IMG/VR virus record: IMGVR_UViG_2924769383_000001
Location: 2,059 to 66,058 of that record
Reading direction: 5' to 3' (one strand)
DNA: 64,000 bases
DNA from: a virus
Lineage: Duplodnaviria; Caudoviricetes
Made by a program: the position numbers and the translations under genes
Part shown: in pieces, positions 3,373 to 56,694 of the stretch
How positions within the stretch are numbered: the stretch's first letter is position 1
Layout of the letters: each line of letters starts with the position of its first letter
The notes under the pieces: model-generated
The model's input: the letters and a program-made list of their open reading frames with translations, nothing else
Told to the model about the DNA's origin: nothing
The model's database searches: none

Positions 3373-3388
3373 TAGGCGCTTTCGCCTA
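3373..3388. promoter_or_regulatory. 16-bp operator overlapping leftward promoter
   Basis: TAGGCG-CTTT-CGCCTA perfect 6-bp inverted repeat; TTGACT on minus strand at 3392-3397. Confidence 0.8.
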
Positions 3389-3430: not shown

Positions 3431-4258
3431 CTACTGCTCACGCCGGGGCTTGCGGCCTGCATTCTTCGCAATTACGCGCACGCGCTCACGCGAAAGGCCG
3501 TGGCTTTCGGCGATAGACGACAATGACTCGCCGTTATCAAAACGGGCCAATATATCCCTATGTCTGTCGTCGCCCTTCTTGGTGACGCTCTCGGCGCGAC
3601 GCGGCCTTGTAATGAACGAAGCCTGCACAATGCCGGTAATGGTTACTTCTTCCGCGCCGCCATATTGCAGCGGCGCCTGATGCTGTGGGTCTGACGAGCG
3701 AGGCCACAGCCAGCGAACACCGTCTTCGCCGAGAACGTATTCTTTCAGGGATGCCTCGACCAAGCCTTGGCGGTCCCGCCGCGTGACAATTACGTGGTCG
3801 CCATGCACAGGCCGCAGGCCGTTCGCAATCGTCGCAGCTACGAATACCACGGCACCATCTGGATAGTAGTTATTCATCGACGTGCCACGTACGATATAGC
3901 CCTGTAGCGGGTAGCCGGGCATGTCTGGATCCAAAAGGGCAGGAACCTTGTATTGGTCGTCGTGGTCCCACTCGATAGCCTCCCGCCAGTCGCCTGCACA
4001 AAGCTCGCCGACAACAGTGACCATCCTTGCCCGAACATCGTCCGGCTCGACCGGCTCGACGCCCACCCACTCGCCATAGGCGACGCCAGCCAGGTCGGCC
4101 AGCTTCATGTTGGGTTCACGCTTCGGCTCCTGCACACCCCGCTCGTACTTAGACACGGTGGATTGATCGACGCCGATTTTGGCGCTCAACTCTTTTTGGT
4201 CGATCCCAAGCCTCGCACGGAGCGCTTTGATTTTTTCAGCCATGCTTTCCATGGACAT
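3431..4258 (-). CDS. CI-like repressor: XRE HTH + S24 autopeptidase + extra C-terminal HTH
   Basis: IKALRARLGIDQKELSAKIGVDQSTVSKYERG; GTSMN Ser and ASLKEY Lys of S24; tail GESLSSIAESHGLSRERVRVI. Confidence 0.9.
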   Translation of the reverse strand: MSMESMAEKIKALRARLGIDQKELSAKIGVDQSTVSKYERGVQEPKREPNMKLADLAGVAYGEWVGVEPVEPDDVRARMVTVVGELCAGDWREAIEWDHDDQYKVPALLDPDMPGYPLQGYIVRGTSMNNYYPDGAVVFVAATIANGLRPVHGDHVIVTRRDRQGLVEASLKEYVLGEDGVRWLWPRSSDPQHQAPLQYGGAEEVTITGIVQASFITRPRRAESVTKKGDDRHRDILARFDNGESLSSIAESHGLSRERVRVIAKNAGRKPRREQ

Positions 4259-4311: not shown

Positions 4312-4476
4312 TATGCGAAAGCGCCTATTTAAGCAATACAAATAGAATAAAACGCCTTTGGTTCCATTCACGCTTAGTTAATTTCTGAAACTGACTGGCC
4401 GCGGCGCGGCTTTTTGCGGTGCCGTAGGCGGTTTCGCATATCGCTGGTTGACATACAAGGCGAAAACGCCTACAAC
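4312..4476. promoter_or_regulatory. Divergent switch region with three operators and rightward sigma70-type promoter
   Basis: TATGCGAAAGCGCCTA 4312-4327, TAGGCGGTTTCGCATA 4425-4440, AAGGCGAAAACGCCTA 4457-4472; TTGACA 4448-4453, 17 nt, TACAAC. Confidence 0.8.
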
Positions 4477-4536
4477 TGGAATTGCGGTTAACGAGTCGCT
4501 TTGTTCTGACCGCCAGGAACCAAGGAAACCAATCAA

Positions 4537-18914: not shown

Positions 18915-21119
18915 ATGACCCCACTCGACCTGGCCCTCTCCTACGCCTCTGCTGGCATACCTGTTTTCCCCTGCCGCGCAGCCGACGAGGACACGGACGA
19001 ATTCGACCCCGTAACTGGCGAGGTGATCGTCCTAAAGCCGAAGACCCCGCTTACCGTTGACGGCTTCAAGGCCGCAACGCGCAGTAAGCCTCTCGTGAAG
19101 CGCTTCTGGGCTAAGTTTCCCGAGGCCATGGTTGGTGCGCCTTCCGGCGAGCCAATGAAGGCATGGATACTGGATATCGACGTCAAGAAACTTGATGACG
19201 GAACCACCATCAATGGCTTCGAGACGCTGTCCGCAATGGAGGAAGACAACGACGTTCTGGACACGGCCATGGCGACGACGCCCCGCGGCGGTCGGCACTA
19301 CTATTTCGCCTACGATGAGCGCGTCACAAATCGCCGCGGCAATCTCGGTCAAGGTGTAGACGTCCGCGGCAATGGTGGCTTCGTTTGCCTGCCTGGCAGT
19401 GTTATGGCTGACGGCGGACGATATGAGTGGCTCGACTACGATGGAGAAGGATTACCTCCGCTCAGGCCCGCCCCTAAGTGGTTGTTGGACATTATCCTGC
19501 CTCCGCCAACACCGCACCGCCAGCCCTACACCTACCAGGCCAACAATGACAACGAACCGTACGTCACCGCAGCGGTAGAGGCCGAACTGTCCAATCTGGC
19601 CGCAGCACCACAAGGCGGACGTGGCGAGGCACTGAACCGTGCCGCCTTTAGCTTGGGAACATTGGTTGGAGCCGACGTTCTATCACGCCACGAGGCGGAG
19701 GACGGCCTGTACGCCGCGGCAGCGTCCAATGGCGTGTTGGCGAAGGATGGCGAGAAGTCAACTTTGGCGCGGATCAAGCGCGGGCTGGACGCCGGATCCC
19801 GCCAGCCACGGGCAGTCCCTGAGCGGCAAGGTGACGACACGCCGATTGTTGGGTTGGGCAGGCTGGTGAAGAAGGCGAAGCCGGCGCCCGTGTCCGAAAA
19901 ACCTATACAAACTTCGGACAGCGAACCAGTAGCCAACTTGGAGCATGTATCGGCGCAGCCCTCAGAACCACCCGCCTTCACGGCCACGCCGTACACCTTC
20001 AAGGATCCACGCTCACTACCGCGGCGCGAGTTTGCGTTTGGTACGCATTACATCCGAAAATATGTGTCCGTCACAGTGTCGCCAGGCGGATTGGGCAAAA
20101 CCTCGAACAGCATCGTTGAGGCGGCGTCCATGGTGTCGGGCCGTGACCTGACGGGCATCAAGCCGCCCGCCAGGCTTAAGGTGTGGCTTTTCAATGCCGA
20201 GGATCCGCGCGACGAGATGGAGCGACGCATTCAGGCGGTATGCCTTCACTACAAGCTAAAGCCCACCGACATCAACGGCCATCTCTTTCTCGACACCGGC
20301 CGTGAGCAAGACCTGGTTATTGCTGTAGATGACAAGCGGACAGGCACAAAAATCCAAGTGCCAATCGTCGAGGCTGTGGTCGACCAAATTCGCCGCAACC
20401 AAATCGATGTGATGATAGTTGATCCATTCGTGTCGACACATCAGGTCAACGAGAATGATAACGGCGCGATCGACAAGGTTGCCAAGCTATGGGCGCAGAT
20501 TGCCGATGATACGAACTGCTCTATCGATATCGTCCATCATCTACGCAAGGTGGCAGACCGCGAGGCAACGGTTGAGGACGCTCGAGGCGCAGTGTCGCTG
20601 ATTGGTGCTGCCCGCTCAGTGCGCGTCTTGAACCGAATGTCGGAGGAGCAAGCTACGGCGTCCGGCGTTCCTGTGCAGGAGCGATTCTCCTATTTCAACA
20701 TCCACCAAGGTAAAGCCAATCTGACCAAAATGTCGACTAGCCAGGACTGGCGGCGCCTGGAGAGTGTGCCACTGGGCAACGGCACGACTTGGAAGCCGCA
20801 AGACTTTGCCGGTGTGGTGACGGAGTGGAAGTGGCCATCTCCGGAAGAAGCGGTTGGCGAAGTGACTGGAGACCAGTTGGAACAGATCAAGTCGCGCATC
20901 AGCAATACCGATTGCAAGTTGCACGCAGCGGCTGACAATTGGGTGGGGCGAGAGGTCGCCTACGTGCTTGGTCTGGATATCGCAATAAAGGCCGACAAGG
21001 CGCGTGTGGCTCGTCTCGTCAAGGCGTGGATAGAGGACGGAACGCTGCTCATTGTGAACCGTCGCTGCCCTATAAAACGCGAGAACAAAGACTTCGTAGA
21101 AGTTGCAGAGCTGTCCTAG
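18915..21119 (+). CDS. Bifunctional primase-polymerase + AAA_25 (RepA-like) helicase
   Basis: GIPVFPC, ILDIDVK, TPRGGRHYYF, DVRGNGGFV; SPGGLGKT, IVDPF, IVHHLRK. Confidence 0.92.
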   Translation: MTPLDLALSYASAGIPVFPCRAADEDTDEFDPVTGEVIVLKPKTPLTVDGFKAATRSKPLVKRFWAKFPEAMVGAPSGEPMKAWILDIDVKKLDDGTTINGFETLSAMEEDNDVLDTAMATTPRGGRHYYFAYDERVTNRRGNLGQGVDVRGNGGFVCLPGSVMADGGRYEWLDYDGEGLPPLRPAPKWLLDIILPPPTPHRQPYTYQANNDNEPYVTAAVEAELSNLAAAPQGGRGEALNRAAFSLGTLVGADVLSRHEAEDGLYAAAASNGVLAKDGEKSTLARIKRGLDAGSRQPRAVPERQGDDTPIVGLGRLVKKAKPAPVSEKPIQTSDSEPVANLEHVSAQPSEPPAFTATPYTFKDPRSLPRREFAFGTHYIRKYVSVTVSPGGLGKTSNSIVEAASMVSGRDLTGIKPPARLKVWLFNAEDPRDEMERRIQAVCLHYKLKPTDINGHLFLDTGREQDLVIAVDDKRTGTKIQVPIVEAVVDQIRRNQIDVMIVDPFVSTHQVNENDNGAIDKVAKLWAQIADDTNCSIDIVHHLRKVADREATVEDARGAVSLIGAARSVRVLNRMSEEQATASGVPVQERFSYFNIHQGKANLTKMSTSQDWRRLESVPLGNGTTWKPQDFAGVVTEWKWPSPEEAVGEVTGDQLEQIKSRISNTDCKLHAAADNWVGREVAYVLGLDIAIKADKARVARLVKAWIEDGTLLIVNRRCPIKRENKDFVEVAELS

Positions 21120-49734: not shown

Positions 49735-49929
49735 ATGAAACTCATACCCGACGTCGAGCGGGTGCTTAAGCGCGCCTGGTCCCTGCGGCTCATCGAGCTT
49801 GCTGCCGTCACAGACATCATCCTGAACACAGTTCCCGCGATGGAATTCCTGCCTTGGTGGGCAACGCTTGCGCTGCTTGCTGGCGCTTGGACGGCACGCC
49901 TGCTGTGGCAGCCCGACAAGGAGGCTTAA
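49735..49929 (+). CDS. Putative holin
   Basis: 64 aa with hydrophobic segments, KRAWSLRL motif, directly before endolysin. Confidence 0.7.
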   Translation: MKLIPDVERVLKRAWSLRLIELAAVTDIILNTVPAMEFLPWWATLALLAGAWTARLLWQPDKEA

Positions 49930-50504
49930 TGCCCATCCATAAGATTGTATCGAGCAAGCGGGCCAAGGCGGCCATTGCAGCCGTGCTTGCGGCGGGCATT
50001 GCGGTTGGTGGCTTATGGCCGGCATCGACATCGCCTGCTGTTATCCTGGCTACCGACCACCTGATTAAGCCGTGGGAAAGCCTGGTGCTGAAGTCGCATT
50101 GGGATCGTTTTTCCAAGCGGTGGGACATCTGCTACGGCGAGACCAAAGGCATAACGGCCGGCATGACTAAGACCAAGGACGAATGCGACGCGATGCTGAT
50201 CAAGCGCGTCACAAACGACTTCTACAAGCCTCTCACCAGATGCATTGCCGACTTCGACAAGAAGCCGGTCAGCCTTCAGGCGTCGATGATTTCCCTGGCG
50301 TACAATTACGGCGCAGAGAGAACGTGCGCCACGAATGCAGCGCGCCTGACGCGGGCGAGCAAGTTCCGAGCGGCATGCGAAGCGGCGACGGCTATCAACA
50401 AAGCTGGCGGCCAGGTTGTTGAGGGTCTAGTGCGACGCCGTGAGATGGGCGACGCACAGCGCATTGGTGAGGCGGAGCTTTGCGTTAGCGGGCTGCCGGC
50501 ATGA
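49929..50504 (+). CDS. GH24 lysozyme endolysin with SAR-like N-terminus
   Basis: ATG at 49929; KPWESL (Glu), WDICYGET, SLAYNYG, GLVRRR. Confidence 0.92.
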   Translation: MPIHKIVSSKRAKAAIAAVLAAGIAVGGLWPASTSPAVILATDHLIKPWESLVLKSHWDRFSKRWDICYGETKGITAGMTKTKDECDAMLIKRVTNDFYKPLTRCIADFDKKPVSLQASMISLAYNYGAERTCATNAARLTRASKFRAACEAATAINKAGGQVVEGLVRRREMGDAQRIGEAELCVSGLPA

Positions 50505-50875
50505 AATGGCTTGACTTCCTCACAGGCGGCTACGCCAAGCTTATCATTTACGCCATTGCGGCAGCCGCGATCATTGGCGCCTTTGGCTACACGTATCATG
50601 CGGGCAGCGCCCATACCGCTGCCGCTTGGCAGCTAAAATACGACCAGCGTGAAGTCGCCATCACCGCGGCGACCAATGCCGAAATCAGCCGCCAGGCTCA
50701 AGCCAACGCTCTTGCTAAGGCACTCGAGGCCAAGCGGCTCGAGGAACTGGCCGCCGACAACGCGGCGCTTGAACAGAAAATCAAGGAACTCTCAGATGAA
50801 GCGAACGCTGACCCTGATCGTGATCGCGTTTGCCTGTCTGACGGCAGCGGGATGCGTATCGACTCAGTCCATTAA
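50501..50875 (+). CDS. i-spanin (Rz-like)
   Basis: N-terminal TM + coiled coil. Confidence 0.8.
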   Translation: MKWLDFLTGGYAKLIIYAIAAAAIIGAFGYTYHAGSAHTAAAWQLKYDQREVAITAATNAEISRQAQANALAKALEAKRLEELAADNAALEQKIKELSDEANADPDRDRVCLSDGSGMRIDSVH

Positions 50876-51095
50876 GGTGCTGCCTCCGCCCGCCCTGAGC
50901 GAGCCGGACCGCTCCTTGCTCATTGCCTGTCTCGGCCCGGTTCGCCTGCCGAAAGGCGAGCTAAGGCAAAAGGACGTCGAGCGGTTGTGGATTAGTGACA
51001 GGAAAGCGCTGCTGGAGTGCGGACGGCGCTTTGGTGCGCTCCGAGATTTCTACGCGGACAGGGACAAGGCTATCCGCGGAGCGGCGAAGAGATGA
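50796..51095 (+). CDS. o-spanin lipoprotein (Rz1-like)
   Basis: Overlaps Rz 3' end; lipobox TAAGC; Pro-rich. Confidence 0.8.
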   Translation: MKRTLTLIVIAFACLTAAGCVSTQSIKVLPPPALSEPDRSLLIACLGPVRLPKGELRQKDVERLWISDRKALLECGRRFGALRDFYADRDKAIRGAAKR

Positions 51096-51427
51096 CACCT
51101 GAACAGATAGCGGCGGCGGTTGCATTCTTTATCATGGTCTCTGGCGCCATGTGGGCCATCTGGTGGCGCATTGAGGGTAAAGTTGACGCCGCCCGCAAGG
51201 ATGCGCAGGCAACCGCCTCCACGGCGCAGATGACAGCAATGTTGGCACGGGAGGAGTTGTCAAAATACATGCTCCACGTTTCCGAGACCTTTGCCACCAA
51301 GGCTGGAATGCAGGAGCAGACGACTCAACTGCTTCGAGCGATTGAGGGCGTAGGCAACCGCATCGACGGGCTGCACGAACGCCTAGACCGCGCATTTGAG
51401 ACACGTCCTGTCCGCCGCACATCATAG
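51092..51427 (+). CDS. Single-TM coiled-coil protein at end of lysis cassette
   Basis: VAFFIMVSGAMWAIWW TM; RIDGLHERLDR tail. Confidence 0.75.
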   Translation: MTPEQIAAAVAFFIMVSGAMWAIWWRIEGKVDAARKDAQATASTAQMTAMLAREELSKYMLHVSETFATKAGMQEQTTQLLRAIEGVGNRIDGLHERLDRAFETRPVRRTS

Positions 51428-51433
51428 ACCCAC

Positions 51434-51465
51434 GCCCGTCAGCCGAAAGGTTGGCGGGCTTTTTT
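51434..51465 (+). terminator. Intrinsic terminator of late operon
   Basis: GCCCGTCAGCC-GAAA-GGTTGGCGGGC-TTTTTT. Confidence 0.9.
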
Positions 51466-51471
51466 GCGTTT

Positions 51472-51522
51472 TAGGCGGTTTCGCATGTGATTGTTGACAA
51501 GAAAGGCGAAAGCGCCTATAAG
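51472..51522 (+). promoter_or_regulatory. Second operator pair and promoter matching the immunity switch
   Basis: TAGGCGGTTTCGCATG 51472-51487, TTGACA 51494-51499, AAGGCGAAAGCGCCTA 51503-51518, TATAAG 51517-51522. Confidence 0.85.
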
Positions 51523-51565: not shown

Positions 51566-52243
51566 ATGCGCATTCTTGCCGCCACCCTTCTTGCTGCCTC
51601 GGCCCTGTGTGTTGTGGGGTGCGCCACAGGTATCCAGTCCAGTGCGCCGGTTGCAGGTTCGTCCGTTCGCATCGAACTGCCTACCAGTTTGGGCAGTGGC
51701 GTCTATATCGGGAATGGCGTCATCATCACCGCGGCGCATGTTGTTGACGGTGCGCCGCAGTCAAGAGTTGAAGTGCAGCCTGGCGTAACAATTTCAGGCC
51801 CGCAGACAGTTCGTCTTATCAGTGACCAGGGCGACGTCCAGACCGGCGAAGTGCTCTGGCTCAACAAAGAGTACGACATCGCGGCCATCAGGCCAGCGAA
51901 TGCGCGCCGCTTTGCCGCAGCGGGACTTGCCTGCCGCGAGCCTGACTTGGGCGAGGCGCTTGTTGCGGAGGGCAACCCGGCAGGCGTGAAGTTCATTCAA
52001 ATGCACGGCTATGTTTCCGGCGACACCCGTCCATTCTTGCCAAACTGGAAGTCAGGTTTCGTTACCGACATGACGGTGATTTCCGGAATGAGCGGTGGTG
52101 GCGTTTACGACCAGTTCGGCGCCGTGATCGGCATTACTGTTGGCGCATTCGACCCACACGGCCAGCAAGGCCAAACAGCGCAGGGCGGCATGGGCTTTGC
52201 GGTGCCGTCGAAGGTGGTTTGTGAACTGCTTGGCCGCGCTTAA
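51566..52243 (+). CDS. Lipoprotein trypsin-like serine protease (HtrA-type domain, no PDZ)
   Basis: Lipobox VVGC; TAAHVV, YDIAAI, GMSGGG triad. Confidence 0.9.
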   Translation: MRILAATLLAASALCVVGCATGIQSSAPVAGSSVRIELPTSLGSGVYIGNGVIITAAHVVDGAPQSRVEVQPGVTISGPQTVRLISDQGDVQTGEVLWLNKEYDIAAIRPANARRFAAAGLACREPDLGEALVAEGNPAGVKFIQMHGYVSGDTRPFLPNWKSGFVTDMTVISGMSGGGVYDQFGAVIGITVGAFDPHGQQGQTAQGGMGFAVPSKVVCELLGRA

Positions 52244-52249
52244 GGGGAG

Positions 52250-52570
52250 ATGGCAATGTCAAAGTCCGAAACCAAGCAGCAATCTCGCACCATGCCGTTC
52301 ATCATTGCAGCCTATGCAATCGGCGCATTCCTGACGTTCGGCCATATCTTCAATCAGAATTACGTTGAGCCGACTCCCGTTGTCGACTGCGGGCAGATGC
52401 CCGAAGTCTTGGGTCACGGATGGGATGCTTACTGGGATTGTAGGCAGTCCAACATCTATGCTCCAGGCACCGGCACTTCCCGGTTTGAGGCCGGATTCCC
52501 CGCCGCCTATGCAGCCATCGCCTGGCCCATCTATTGGGGTGGCCACTTCGCCATCAAGGTGACGAAATGA
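52250..52570 (+). CDS. Membrane protein
   Basis: AYAIGAFLTFGH and AAIAWPIYW hydrophobic segments. Confidence 0.7.
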   Translation: MAMSKSETKQQSRTMPFIIAAYAIGAFLTFGHIFNQNYVEPTPVVDCGQMPEVLGHGWDAYWDCRQSNIYAPGTGTSRFEAGFPAAYAAIAWPIYWGGHFAIKVTK

Positions 52571-52709
52571 CCGCAAGTCTCGCACTGTCAATCCCTAGCG
52601 CAGTCGCCTTTGCTTTCGCTGGCGTGCTCGCTTACCGCGGCACCGAAGGTTGGGGCTGGTTTCTCTTTGCCGGCCTGCTTGCTGCGGGCAGCATGAAGGT
52701 TGTTGCATC

Positions 52710-53219
52710 ATGACCCTCACCCGCAAATTGTTCATCATCAATTTCGCTTGGGCGGCACTCGTCGCTTGGGCGTGGTTTATGGGGTATGTGCAGCGCGTTA
52801 CGGAAGCGGACGCTGTGCATATGGCTTATGTCATTGCGGCAGTCTTTGCGGCTGGCCTTGCGTCGACGTTCTGGCAGGCACGGAAGGTGGACGAGCGGAT
52901 GCGACAGCGCTCATGGACTGGTAATGAGCGAGAGCGCGGGTACACGTCCATTGTTCGGGAAAGCGCCCATCTGTATGATGTCTTCGTCGCGCTGTTCCTT
53001 CTCGGTATCATTGGCAACGCGATCGGCTTCCTTGTGGCATTCGGCGGCGTTGACGTCGGCGCGCTGTCGGACCCGGAAGGTATCCGCAAGGCTGGCGCGC
53101 AACTCCTATCCGGTGCAGGCACCGCCTTCGGCTCAACACTAGTTGGACTGACGCTCGCACTTTGGACTTCTGTCAATCTGCGCATCTTGGCTACGGCTAC
53201 CGATCGGCTCGCGCCATGA
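52710..53219 (+). CDS. MotA/TolQ/ExbB-like membrane protein
   Basis: LLGIIGNAIGFLVAF...LLSGAGTAFGSTLVGL resembles ExbB/TolQ TM signature. Confidence 0.7.
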   Translation: MTLTRKLFIINFAWAALVAWAWFMGYVQRVTEADAVHMAYVIAAVFAAGLASTFWQARKVDERMRQRSWTGNERERGYTSIVRESAHLYDVFVALFLLGIIGNAIGFLVAFGGVDVGALSDPEGIRKAGAQLLSGAGTAFGSTLVGLTLALWTSVNLRILATATDRLAP

Positions 53220-53785
53220 GCCGACCGTCGCACGCTTCACACGTATGGTTGTTTGCGTTCGTTGATGTGCTTCTGGTGCTGACGTTTGTGCTTGCGTCGT
53301 TTGTGTTCCTTGCCCTTCCGCAAATCAACCCGCCAGCACGAGACAACCCCGACGCCCTGCCGCCTCCGGGTAGCCTAGCTGTAGTCGCTGCATGGCCGGA
53401 AGGCAGCGTGGATGTTGATCTATGGCTTAAGTCGCCAGACGACGACAAGCCGGTTGGCTACTCCAGAAAAGACGGCACGGTCTGCGCACTACTGCGTGAC
53501 GACCTCGGCACCACGAACGACGGCAGCCCGTTTAATGCTGAAAATGCCTTCTGCCGCGCGCTGCCTGCCGGCGAATATGTGGTGAACACCCACGCATATT
53601 CGGTGCCTGCGGAGGGCGTGAAGGTGCATGTCGAGATCGCGCTTAACGGTCGGCTGCTTGTGTCAAGGGATATGGATTTGCGCCCCAAGCAAGAGCGCAC
53701 TGTGGCGCGGTTCACGTTGGATGGGGGCGGCCAGGTTGTGAGCAGTAACGAGGTTTATTTGCCGCTCCGCTCAGCGAACAAGTAG
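53216..53785 (+). CDS. ExbD/TolR/MotB-like single-TM protein
   Basis: FAFVDVLLVL with Asp in TM, Pro-rich linker, periplasmic beta domain. Confidence 0.65.
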   Translation: MSRPSHASHVWLFAFVDVLLVLTFVLASFVFLALPQINPPARDNPDALPPPGSLAVVAAWPEGSVDVDLWLKSPDDDKPVGYSRKDGTVCALLRDDLGTTNDGSPFNAENAFCRALPAGEYVVNTHAYSVPAEGVKVHVEIALNGRLLVSRDMDLRPKQERTVARFTLDGGGQVVSSNEVYLPLRSANK

Positions 53786-53794
53786 GAGGGAATT

Positions 53795-54121
53795 ATGTGC
53801 GCAGTTAGCATGGTTGGCGATCACTACAATGAGAAATGGCACGACCAGCCTTGGGCTAAGCCGCTGCAGCCATTTCGCGTCTATCCCGAAGGGTGGCCCT
53901 TGACGCCAACTAAGGTTGAGGCGGTTCCATCCGTTTATGTGTCGAAGCTAGAATTTGACGCTCTTAAGAAGGACGTCGAAGAAATGAAGGCGCTGCTCAT
54001 TCGCGCCAAGGAATACGATGAGCGCAACAATGAGCCGCACTGCGAAATCGAAGACAAGGTTGCCTTACTCAAGCGCGTCGCCGAGGCGGTAGGCGTAGAC
54101 CTGTCAGAGGTATTCAAATGA
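53795..54121 (+). CDS. Hypothetical protein
   Basis: SD GGAGGG; MCAVSMVGDHY...EPHCE motif. Confidence 0.75.
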   Translation: MCAVSMVGDHYNEKWHDQPWAKPLQPFRVYPEGWPLTPTKVEAVPSVYVSKLEFDALKKDVEEMKALLIRAKEYDERNNEPHCEIEDKVALLKRVAEAVGVDLSEVFK

Positions 54122-54312
54122 AGATCAAGAATGATGGTGGTCAGGCTTTCCCATACAATACGGCATGGGGCACGCCAGGCATGACGCTGCGCGACTGGTT
54201 CGCGGGGCAGGTTATTGCCGGTCACTTCCACATTGATCCGGCAGTCCAGTACAGTTACGCGCAGACGGCTTACACAATGGCCGACGCCATGCTCGCGGCT
54301 CGCGACAAATGA
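54118..54312 (+). CDS. Conserved small phage protein
   Basis: DGGQAFP..GMTLRDWFAGQ..AYTMADAMLAAR. Confidence 0.8.
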   Translation: MKIKNDGGQAFPYNTAWGTPGMTLRDWFAGQVIAGHFHIDPAVQYSYAQTAYTMADAMLAARDK

Positions 54313-54597
54313 CCCAGTTCGCATGGGCCGGCGTCTGCTTCGCGGCGTTCCTGGTTGCGGCGGGCACGTTCAGTGCTGTCGGTCTTTGGTGGTTGGGAGA
54401 GGAGGAGGAGGTGTGATGGATATCTGGCATGGCGCGCAATGGGTGTTGGCAACCTATTTTGCGATGATGACGGCGATCAATTTCTTCGGCGTTACGCTAC
54501 AGAAGACATCCTATCCGACACGGGCAGGGTGGCTGTTCGGAAAGCTTGCGACGCGGTCGGCTCTAGTTGCCGTACTATATTGGGGAGGCTTTTGGTC

Positions 54598-55017
54598 ATG
54601 ATCGCCTCAACCTGGCTCTGCCTTATGCTCACACTTGCCGCCTACGCATGGTTCGCCTATCGCACACCTTACGTGCTTCCAATCCTGGCCGCAGCGGCAG
54701 CCTTTGCGATGTACGTGCCAACCGGCACGCCGCGCCTTACGGCGCCGCCCGCTGGACACTACGAAGTGCTTGGCGCCGACATCGTGGTCGACCAGTACAT
54801 TGATGCGCTGCTTAAGCCGGAGGGTGGCGAAGCCATGCTTTACCGCCTGCCGTATAGCACAGCGCAAGCCAATGCATTGCAGGCTGCCAAGGATGGCGGC
54901 AACGGCGTTAGCGCCGAAGTCGGCACCGATGGTGGGGTTGCTTATGACGGCGACCCGCCCGTTACCGACACTGAGAATAAGCATGCGGAAGAGCCGCAAT
55001 TGAACGTTGGAGGGTGA
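54598..55017 (+). CDS. Membrane-anchored hypothetical protein
   Basis: Two N-terminal TM segments then GTPR..YRLPYS. Confidence 0.7.
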   Translation: MIASTWLCLMLTLAAYAWFAYRTPYVLPILAAAAAFAMYVPTGTPRLTAPPAGHYEVLGADIVVDQYIDALLKPEGGEAMLYRLPYSTAQANALQAAKDGGNGVSAEVGTDGGVAYDGDPPVTDTENKHAEEPQLNVGG

Positions 55018-55229: not shown

Positions 55230-56497
55230 TTTTGCCAACACCATCAGTCACAGACGAAGCCATCGCCGCGACCGTAGCGGCGCGCCAGGCGCACAAGACC
55301 AATGTCGACGCAGCCAAGGCGCTCGGCATTGATGAGAAGACCGTGCGCCGCCACATGACGCTTGCTGCGGAGCGGGGGATGTTAGGCTTCAATCCTGTGC
55401 TCGACGGCTTTGCCGTGTCTCAGGTCTCGGGCAAGGTCGACGGCCATTGGGTCAAGCAGCGTAAGGCGGCTGGCGAAGTCTTTGAAGTGCCGGTCGGCCA
55501 AAAAATCAAGGGCGTCAGTGCGCTCGTGGATCCCGATGGGCGCGAGCTTATCAAGTGGATTAAGACTGATGCCGCGCGCGAAGTGCAACAGAAAGCCTTT
55601 GAGGCGATGGTTGCGGCTTTTGCAGACGCGCTGCCTCGCGCTGAACCGGTTCCTGTACCGCGATGGACTAACGCCGACTTGCTCTGCCAGTACACCATTA
55701 CGGATGCACACCTTGGCGCTCTGGCATGGAATGAGGAAACGGGAGGCGGGGATTACGATCTCTCAATTGGCGAGGAACTGCTGATCGACTGGTTTGCGGC
55801 GGCTATTGCAACATCGCCACCGGCCAAGCGAGCCGTCTTTGCTCAGCTTGGCGACTTCCTTCACTATGACTCGTTCAAGAGCATAACGCCGGAACACGGT
55901 CACTTGCTCGACGGCGACACGCGCTACCCAAAGATGGTGCGGGCAGCCATTCGCGTGGTGCGTACCGTAATACGCCTCTTGCTCGAAAAGCACGAGCAAC
56001 TCGACATCATCATGAGTGACGCCAACCACGACCCATCAAGCGAGGTGTGGCTGCGCGAGATGCTTGCCGCATTTTACGACCATGAGCCACGTATCAAGGT
56101 AGATACCAATCCCGGCACATACTCGATGCTCGAGCATGGCGACGTCACGCTCTTTTATCATCACGGTCATCGTCGCGGTGTCGGCCAAGTCGACTCAGTG
56201 TTCGTCGGCAAATTCCGCGAAGCCTATGGTCGCACTCGTTTCTCATATGCGCACGTCGGTCATAAGCACGCCGATGAATTGAAGACCACCAATCTAATGA
56301 AGGTTGAGCAGCATGAGACGCTAGCCGCGCCCGACGCCTACGCGGCGAACGGCGGATGGCTATCCGGTAGGTCGGCCAAGGTCATCTACTACCATTCGAA
56401 GTTCGGATACGTGGGCCGCAACATCATGACTCCGGAAATGGTTGCCGGTGCCTACCTGGCCGCTAATGACAACGAACCGAAGGAGATGGCGGCGTGA
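55151..56497 (+). CDS. HTH + calcineurin-like metallophosphoesterase (start probably TTG 55232)
   Basis: ITDAHLG, LGDFLH, DANHD, YHHGH, GHKH; ends AANDNEPKEMAA. Confidence 0.85.
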   Translation: MVGPSRVRRCRQPWKYSGLPHPQGILILPTPSVTDEAIAATVAARQAHKTNVDAAKALGIDEKTVRRHMTLAAERGMLGFNPVLDGFAVSQVSGKVDGHWVKQRKAAGEVFEVPVGQKIKGVSALVDPDGRELIKWIKTDAAREVQQKAFEAMVAAFADALPRAEPVPVPRWTNADLLCQYTITDAHLGALAWNEETGGGDYDLSIGEELLIDWFAAAIATSPPAKRAVFAQLGDFLHYDSFKSITPEHGHLLDGDTRYPKMVRAAIRVVRTVIRLLLEKHEQLDIIMSDANHDPSSEVWLREMLAAFYDHEPRIKVDTNPGTYSMLEHGDVTLFYHHGHRRGVGQVDSVFVGKFREAYGRTRFSYAHVGHKHADELKTTNLMKVEQHETLAAPDAYAANGGWLSGRSAKVIYYHSKFGYVGRNIMTPEMVAGAYLAANDNEPKEMAA

Positions 56498-56694
56498 CAG
56501 TCCTATACGATCCACCAAGCGGTTGGAGGTTTGGCTTCCCAAAGCCTTATGAGCCTTCAAATCCGCTTGAGCCTATCGAGCACACGTTGCGACGCGACGG
56601 CTATCCAGACGAGTTGCTGGCGCAAGGCTTGGCGAAATATTGCCGGTTCATGGGTAGCGATGAGGAATTGGAGGGCTTGCCGGATGCCGCTTAA
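56494..56694 (+). CDS. Small conserved phage protein
   Basis: YDPPSGWRFGFPK motif. Confidence 0.75.
   Translation: MTVLYDPPSGWRFGFPKPYEPSNPLEPIEHTLRRDGYPDELLAQGLAKYCRFMGSDEELEGLPDAA

Follow-up and report, generated by a model that had tools for sequence, protein, structure and literature searches.

A conserved phage and chromosomal gene trio that probably encodes a minimal ion-driven membrane motor

The DNA studied here, called the window, is a stretch of 64,000 nucleotides from a virus (Duplodnaviria; Caudoviricetes) and covers positions 2,059 to 66,058 of the IMG/VR record IMGVR_UViG_2924769383_000001. Three of its genes, located between 52,710 and 55,017, encode proteins which we designate subunits A, B and C, and which together probably constitute a minimal and so far undescribed branch of the membrane motors that are driven by ions and assemble 5:2 (MotAB, ExbBD, TolQR, ZorAB). 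Flagella, nutrient import, envelope integrity, gliding and Zorya defence all depend on motors of this kind. To our knowledge, each time a further branch has been recognised, another mode of energy delivery to the envelope has come to light, and we know of no smaller form than the present trio, in which the cytoplasmic domain is missing, the axle head is TerD-like and the partner protein has two transmembrane (TM) helices. The three genes are as follows.

52710-53219, plus strand: subunit A, a minimal four-TM protein of the MotA/TolQ/ExbB/ZorA superfamily, 169 amino acids (aa), assigned from homologue profiles and an AlphaFold2 (AF2) model
53216-53785, plus strand: subunit B, with a short cytoplasmic N-terminus, one TM helix, a proline-rich linker and a predicted periplasmic beta-sandwich, assigned from alignments and an AF2 model
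54598-55017, plus strand: subunit C, the conserved third partner, with an N-terminal two-TM hairpin, a small domain (about 80 residues) and a proline-rich tail, assigned from co-occurrence and alignment

Evidence for the three subunits

Subunit A was placed by comparing profiles of its relatives with known families. An exhaustive profile search collected 633 representative clusters at E<=0.001. The Pfam family PF01618 was matched by 46 of 54 sampled wider relatives at E<=0.01 (best 2e-12) and by 18 of the 30 close relatives at E<=1, and a homologue from a Mesorhizobium metagenome-assembled genome (L017:1486-2151, 47 % identical) scored 24.1 bits against a gathering threshold of 22.9. When the wider-family profile was compared with PDB sequences, it matched type I ZorA (1.1e-8), Escherichia coli ZorA (2e-4) and MotA (4e-4), with weaker rows for TolQ (2e-3), ExbB (0.012) and also PomA. 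No unrelated natural family was found at better than E=1, the sole other row being the de novo designed TM nanopore TMH4C4 (E 0.024). The window protein itself gave weak matches to ZorA, with PADLOC (8e-5, residues 91-155) and with NCBIfam (0.025). On these sequence comparisons we regard A as a solidly placed, diverged member of the MotA/TolQ/ExbB family, which belongs to PF01618 by transitive homology and not by direct score. The initial annotation had described the protein encoded at 52710 as ExbB/TolQ-like, and the matches of its relatives to PF01618 and of the profile to ZorA, MotA, TolQ and ExbB bear this out.

The consensus of the wider family, LGLIGTVxGF ... GMxxALxTTLVG, aligned to helices of both ZorA and MotA and is the channel-helix signature of the MotA/TolQ/ExbB family. 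It contains motifs of the types G-x-x-G-T and A-x-x-T-T-x-x-G in the two C-terminal channel helices, and the clade of the window retains Thr143 of the second of these helices. The AF2 model of A (predicted local distance difference test, pLDDT, 90) contains four long helices; the chain ends about 15 residues past the last TM helix, and between TM2 and TM3 there are only about 30 cytoplasmic residues. According to the positive-inside rule the topology would be N-in and C-in, as in MotA. The top Foldseek matches of the model were ExbB, ZorA and TolQ, with weak E-values of at least 0.03, and comparison with ZorA, ExbB, TolQ and MotA in VIA gave Z values of 9-10.4 and a root-mean-square deviation of about 3 Å over approximately 140 residues with 13-16 % identity.

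The start of the B gene overlaps the stop codon of A by 4 nt (ATGA), and the TM helix of B carries the motif FVDVLLVL, which includes Asp17. A coupled single-TM protein with this motif was already noticed in the initial annotation, and checking its TM aspartate among homologues showed that the residue is invariant: Asp17 was unchanged in 45 relatives, even when the flanking residues were altered (LVRDLLMN, LKLDALFN), and also in 22 phage and chromosomal sequences with identities down to 26 %. In the AF2 model of B (pLDDT 91) a helix at residues 10-37 is followed by a proline-rich coil of approximately 15 residues (INPPARDNPDALPPPG) and a nine-strand beta domain, and no plug helix is present after the TM helix. 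Foldseek matched the beta domain to TerD homologues (6e-5 to 1.5e-4). In a wide VIA search against representatives, residues 52-188 gave Z values of 10.2 and 9.8 with TerD over 133 residues, the next value being 6.1, and the ESM Atlas neighbours of B were automatically named YfaP/DUF2135.

The likeness of B to these proteins is at the level of the fold, as neither B nor its 45 relatives had a sequence match to PF02342 (TerD) or PF09906 (DUF2135). None of the Pfam families ExbD, MotB_plug, OmpA, TerD and DUF2135 was convincingly matched in the 45 members; PF02472 (ExbD/TolR) was matched by 0 of 45 at E<=1, a lone member matched MotB_plug at E 0.24, and a profile of the window clade of B gave nothing meaningful against PDB sequences. 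Judging from the model, the periplasmic domain of B is a TerD/DUF2135-like beta-sandwich and has neither the ExbD nor the OmpA fold, and only its Asp-bearing helix is shared with ExbD, TolR, MotB and ZorB. An ExbD/MotB-type partner had been proposed initially, of which the helix remains and the periplasmic domain has to be replaced by a TerD/DUF2135-like one. Seven acidic residues of B (D66, D68, D95, D96, D102, E109 and E160) were unchanged in the 22-sequence alignment, which suggests a cation site like that of TerD. Because the linker is short, the head of B must, if the model is correct, be held close to the inner membrane.

Subunit C was recognised by its position. A C gene was present downstream of B in all ten close viral loci and, in the broader set of phage loci, in 79 of the 79 that had sufficient downstream flank. 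A profile built from the phage proteins found the gene directly 3' of B in chromosomal loci as well, with E-values down to 1e-12. The alignment of C shows a pair of hydrophobic helices at the N-terminus, with no invariant residue in the TM segments, and the domain of about 80 residues is probably periplasmic. No family in Pfam, PHROG or NCBIfam was matched by C, and for window A and B the direct scans of these collections likewise yielded nothing beyond the weak ZorA matches of A. Longer versions of C were looked for and not found, although a search of this kind is weak evidence. According to the initial annotation no TonB- or TolA-like partner was recognisable. The gene at 54598 is indeed not TonB/TolA-like by sequence, but as a strictly co-occurring third subunit it had been overlooked.

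Distribution of the trio and organisation of its operon

The linkage between the genes is nearly complete. The gene for A immediately precedes that for B in 20 of 20 chromosomal loci, and it also lies 5' of B in 79 of 80 phage loci; the remaining locus contains only a 66-aa fragment 4 kb away. The survey of synteny across phages suggested in the initial annotation has thus been carried out, with A upstream and C downstream of B practically throughout. The cassette is common. In IMG/VR, 286 stretches encode a relative of B, as matched by two B motifs. In bacteria, B was found in 42 of 301 sampled alphaproteobacterial genomes (~14 %) and in 15 of 401 sampled Pseudomonadota genomes. When six chromosomal regions were compared, A, B and C were the only genes in common, and the neighbours of the chromosomal trio included rpoZ, a gene for an NYN-domain protein, tldD, a molybdopterin gene (moaB), an SLT transglycosylase and a DEAD-box helicase. 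With this chromosomal form among housekeeping genes, the cassette is not confined to phages.

A quick maximum-likelihood tree built for B splits into a clade mostly of phage sequences (68 phage, 1 chromosomal) and a mainly chromosomal clade (19 chromosomal sequences, 4 viral contigs), with 6 changes between phage and chromosome labels compared to 23 in shuffles. The window proteins are approximately 28 % (A) and 39 % (B) identical to their chromosomal counterparts. The sequences crossing between the clades are the B proteins of the IMG/VR contigs L090, L112, L128 and L130, inside the mainly chromosomal clade, and that of the chromosomal locus L046 (G567), which lies inside the phage clade beside the window. 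These may represent either rare exchanges or misclassified contigs and prophages. The Mesorhizobium metagenome-assembled genome contains two distinct phage-type A-B copies, on contigs L017 (G001:C7) and L012/L018 (G001:C9), and since the copies are on two contigs this genome probably holds two related prophages. Across phage genomes the cassette occupies very different positions. In a phage with 48 % GC (L085:1721-8196) the trio is within the head operon, between packaging-type genes and a major-capsid-like gene, which indicates that the cassette moves between differing positions in phage genomes.

Homologues also exist in described phages. With tblastn, A and B were found in Rhizobium phage 16-3, Sinorhizobium phages AP-16-3 and NV1.1.1, and Rhizobium phages RHph_X2_25 and RHph_TM3_3_14B. 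The 16-3 genes p033, p036 (protease), p038 (A), p040 (B), p042 (C), p044, p048 (HD hydrolase) and p050 follow in this order and are syntenic with the window from 51092 to about 58300. The identities to the window proteins, which occur in the same order, are 35 % for the protease, 31 % for A, 42 % for B and 39 % for C. In the 16-3 annotation p036 is a trypsin-like protease, and p038, p040 and p042 are given by number or as hypothetical only. The AP-16-3 paper does not discuss these genes, and in the literature on DUF2135, phage 16-3 and phage-encoded ExbB/MotA proteins no description of the cassette was found. The trio is absent from a recent survey which names many 'generic ion transporters' without individual names (PMC12505986), and also from a report on new vWA transducers (PMC12204202). 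As 16-3 is a classical, genetically tractable phage that has the trio, the proposals made here are testable.

The window phage is a complete virus record of 66,058 bp with direct terminal repeats. Proteins closely related to those of the phage are encoded in Mesorhizobium and Aquamicrobium genomes and in soil metagenomes, which indicates that the phage is rhizobial and probably temperate. It has a CI-like repressor gene. The features surrounding the trio, and this repressor gene, are as follows.

3431-4258, minus strand: CI-like repressor, with a helix-turn-helix motif and an S24 peptidase-like C-terminus as read off the translation
51434-51459, plus strand: intrinsic terminator that ends the upstream lysis-side unit, an 11-bp stem, 8 of its pairs GC, and a TTTTTT tract after it
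51472-51522, plus strand: putative promoter GTTGACA, 17-nt spacer, TATAAG, with two overlapping or flanking 15-bp operator-like palindromes (motif counts, alignment to 4405-4530)
51566-52243, plus strand: trypsin-like serine protease, a predicted periplasmic lipoprotein accessory to the trio (Pfam, PHROG and NCBIfam matches)
52250-52570, plus strand: small hydrophobic open reading frame (ORF), 106 aa, lineage-specific filler with a homologue in 2 of 93 related loci
52567-52713, plus strand: small two-TM ORF, 48 aa, lineage-specific, with a homologue in 0 of 93 related loci
53795-54121, plus strand: inserted small ORF outside the trio, 108 aa, PHROG 10166 (function unknown), missing from related loci, in which B and C adjoin
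54118-54312, plus strand: inserted small ORF, 64 aa, PHROG 2201 (function unknown), in 8 of 93 related loci
54418-54601, plus strand: inserted small hydrophobic ORF, 61 aa, with no family match and 0 homologues among related loci

Control of the operon can be read from a near-palindromic 15-mer, TAGGCGnnnnCGCMT, which occurs 6 times in the window, where 0.2 copies would be expected. The repressor gene is flanked by four of them (3373-3387, 4313-4327, 4425-4439 and 4458-4472), and two precede the protease-motor operon (51472-51486 and 51504-51518), one of them within the promoter spacer. A composite pattern of -35 box plus operator was found 3 times in the window against 0 expected, once facing left, from 3398, and twice facing right, from 4447 and 51493. 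The six sites are probably immunity operators. Since the operator copies at the promoter are the same as those around the repressor gene, the protease-motor operon would be a third early promoter unit under the immunity repressor, probably silent in the lysogen and turned on early after infection or induction. In this way the operator-bearing promoter predicts when the trio acts.

Upstream of this promoter, the terminator closes a unit that includes a holin-like ORF, an endolysin, spanins and the ORF at 51092-51427. The lysis cassette itself (49735-51095) begins with a two-TM holin-like ORF (49735-49929), followed by an endolysin within 49854-50504, the N-terminus of which resembles a signal-anchor-release (SAR) segment, an Rz-like spanin (50501-50875) and an overlapping lipoprotein ORF (MKRTLTL...AAGC) within 50649-51095. 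We considered the trio as a part of the lysis cassette; this was rejected, as the terminator and a promoter of its own with operators set the trio apart, and its location varies among other phages.

All ORFs listed in the initial annotation are present on the plus strand, and its lipobox trypsin-like protease was confirmed by matches to Pfam Trypsin_2 (2e-18) and to PHROG 9683, 'protease' (8e-40). The protein also matches HtrA/DegP-type NCBIfam models and is without a PDZ domain. Its N-terminus has a signal peptide followed by the lipobox VVGC, and His58, Ser176 (GxSGG), Cys123 and Cys219 were unchanged across 38 homologues. By sequence, these features fit an active periplasmic enzyme. Of the 80 phage loci, 39 have the protease together with the trio, but no match to it was found in the chromosomal trio loci examined, so that its earlier inclusion in the system is justified only as a lineage accessory of the trio. 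Both the 52250 and the 52567 ORF are hydrophobic, as had been noted, and gave no match in family scans; with so few homologues in the 93 related loci in which the conservation of small ORFs was assessed, they do not belong to the system. As core components, the protease and these two ORFs were ruled out by the co-occurrence counts. The ORFs at 52250, 52567, 53795, 54118 and 54418 are all sporadic among related loci, and the last three, which are not conserved, separate B from C in the window.

Within the 53795-54121 ORF, positions 53949-54115 resemble hypothetical genes of two 200-kb Xanthomonas phages, BUDD and X1, with roughly 70 % of the nucleotides identical. A 53-nt direct repeat with 72 % identity was also observed, with one copy (19531-19583) inside a 734-aa ORF and the other (56451-56503) spanning the 3' end of the 55151-56497 gene, where it encodes the C-terminal ...AANDNEP... 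tail.

Proposed machine and alternative explanations

The comparisons above show the family placement of A, the invariant aspartate, the TerD-like fold, the strict co-occurrence of the three genes and the operator sites. The 5:2 assembly of the trio, its rotation, the membrane topology, the early expression and the biological role are inferred, the assembly and rotation by homology to solved 5:2 motors. A would form a pentameric channel ring, each subunit contributing four TM helices, two of them channel-lining, and almost no cytoplasmic domain, with two copies of B in the centre of the ring. Asp17 of B would take up and release an ion, and its protonation would make A and B rotate relative to each other. 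As A lacks a cytoplasmic output surface and the head of B lies near the membrane, the work would be delivered in the membrane or periplasm, through the TerD-like, probably cation-binding head of B on its linker of about 15 residues. C, with its two TM helices, small periplasmic domain and proline-rich tail, would be the other candidate for output. The trio would be co-transcribed with the periplasmic lipoprotein protease; its expression would be shut down in the lysogen and begin soon after infection or induction. The early timing and the co-transcribed protease point to a modification of the envelope in early infection. We would guess that the likeliest purpose is an envelope change which helps the infected cell, for example superinfection exclusion or another periplasmic task.

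Several observations speak against the placement of the trio among these motors, or limit it. Window A had no Pfam match at E<=1, and the profile of its own clade gave nothing meaningful against PDB sequences. The first channel-helix threonine is replaced by Asn103 in this clade (GIIGNAIGF, in place of GTV in the wider family). Neither B nor C matched the Pfam families ExbD, TolR, MotB, TonB or TolA. The similarity of A to MotA and ExbB, which the initial annotation had asked to see in structure, exists (Z 9-10.4), but designed helical-bundle decoys likewise reach Z values of about 10 with the A model. As the decoys score alike, structure alone is not decisive for A, and its structural matches serve as corroboration. 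Furthermore, the position of the module varies across phages, and the early timing may not generalise.

The function of the machine is a matter of guesses, among which we rank superinfection exclusion and defence-related roles first. The hijack of the proton motive force, the jamming of Ton/Tol and the stripping of receptors proposed in the initial annotation are likewise guesses. It is possible, if somewhat doubtful, that the trio is a Zorya-related defence or exclusion device which senses perturbation of the envelope or of cations, blocks DNA entry or collapses the proton motive force (PMF), and so provides early superinfection exclusion. This would be a functional reading of the same machine with its structure unchanged. 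Among solved proteins ZorA is the nearest to A in sequence, the trio is patchy in bacteria (42/301 and 15/401) and lies in unrelated neighbourhoods, as is typical of accessory cassettes, its position in phages varies in the manner of a moron, and in the window phage it has an early repressor-controlled promoter. However, the ZorA tail, ZorB, ZorC and ZorD are missing, PADLOC reports only a weak ZorA and nothing for B or C, the chromosomal neighbours are housekeeping genes and not defence islands, and a device repressed in the lysogen would be unable to protect the lysogen itself. A more specific proposal is doubtful: that the trio represents a new class of ion-driven envelope motor, with a membrane-hugging, cation-binding TerD-like domain and a two-TM partner as its output, used as an early, repressor-controlled and PMF-powered barrier against superinfecting phages or against envelope-sensing host defences such as Zorya. 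If true, such a barrier motor would be the phage counterpart of the stator-like defence motors.

The chromosomal form raises the question of whether the phage trio is an auxiliary envelope maintenance system, replacing or boosting a host A-B-C set during infection. A homologous trio does occur among housekeeping genes (rpoZ, tldD, moaB, DEAD-box helicase), and the phage and chromosomal B lineages are largely separate, with 6 label changes against 23 after shuffling. We nevertheless consider this explanation unlikely, as only a minority of genomes carry the chromosomal form, and the phage proteins are just ~28 % (A) and ~39 % (B) identical to the chromosomal ones. It is quite unlikely that the complex is a regulated ion leak, lowering the PMF early to shut down host functions or aiding the timing of lysis. 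In the model the TM helix of B runs straight into the proline-rich coil with no plug helix, A has no cytoplasmic domain, and in this lineage the module is just 3' of the holin, SAR-type endolysin and spanin cassette, all of which would suit a leak. But a strong terminator and an own operator-bearing promoter separate the module from the lysis genes, from which it is distant in other phages, and a leak would need neither the strict three-gene linkage nor periplasmic domains as elaborate and as well conserved as those of B and C. A chromosomal form is also retained in many bacteria. For these reasons a simple ion leak or a role in lysis timing is less likely than the exclusion and defence-related roles.

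Comparison with known systems

Of the solved systems, ZorA-ZorB (PDB 8vvn, 8qyd) is closest to the trio. ZorA comes nearest to A among solved proteins by profile (1.1e-8), by structure (Z 10.4 over 144 residues) and by PADLOC (8e-5), and in both systems a pentamer-type subunit is combined with a small subunit that has a TM aspartate. ZorA has a long cytoplasmic tail, whereas A ends without one at 169 aa, and B has a TerD-like domain in place of the peptidoglycan-binding domain of ZorB. The Zorya effector genes ZorC and ZorD are lacking, the trio having a two-TM third gene instead, and PADLOC found no Zor partner genes among the neighbours scanned.

With ExbB-ExbD-TonB and TolQ-TolR-TolA the trio shares the logic of three genes, for a channel subunit, a subunit with an aspartate in its only TM helix, and a further membrane partner. 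The Pfam MotA_ExbB core aligns with the last two TM helices of A, structural comparison with ExbB and TolQ gives Z 9-10, and the TM helix of ExbD and TolR resembles the FVDVLLVL segment of B. Unlike ExbB and TolQ, A begins with an additional TM helix, and its cytoplasmic part is minimal. B has a predicted periplasmic beta-sandwich on a very short linker, compared to the alpha/beta fold of ExbD and TolR, and C differs by sequence from TonB and TolA in having two predicted TM helices and no match to a TonB/TolA C-terminal domain. The flagellar stators MotA-MotB and PomA-PomB resemble the trio in the four TM helices of A, in the profile matches to MotA (4e-4) and PomA, and in the location of the aspartate near the cytoplasmic end of the B helix. 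They differ in the torque-generating cytoplasmic domain, plug helix and OmpA-like domain, all of which the trio lacks, and the genes in the window are phage-borne and unrelated to flagellar genes.

TerD and YfaP (DUF2135) are like B in the fold of residues 52-188, and the invariant acidic cluster of B may correspond to the Ca2+ sites of TerD. TerD proteins are soluble and cytoplasmic, whereas the domain of B is membrane-anchored and predicted to be periplasmic. The core of the trio is a new minimal variant of a known machine type, and the partner domains of B and C differ from those of every described Ton, Tol, Mot, Zor, Agl and Gld system.

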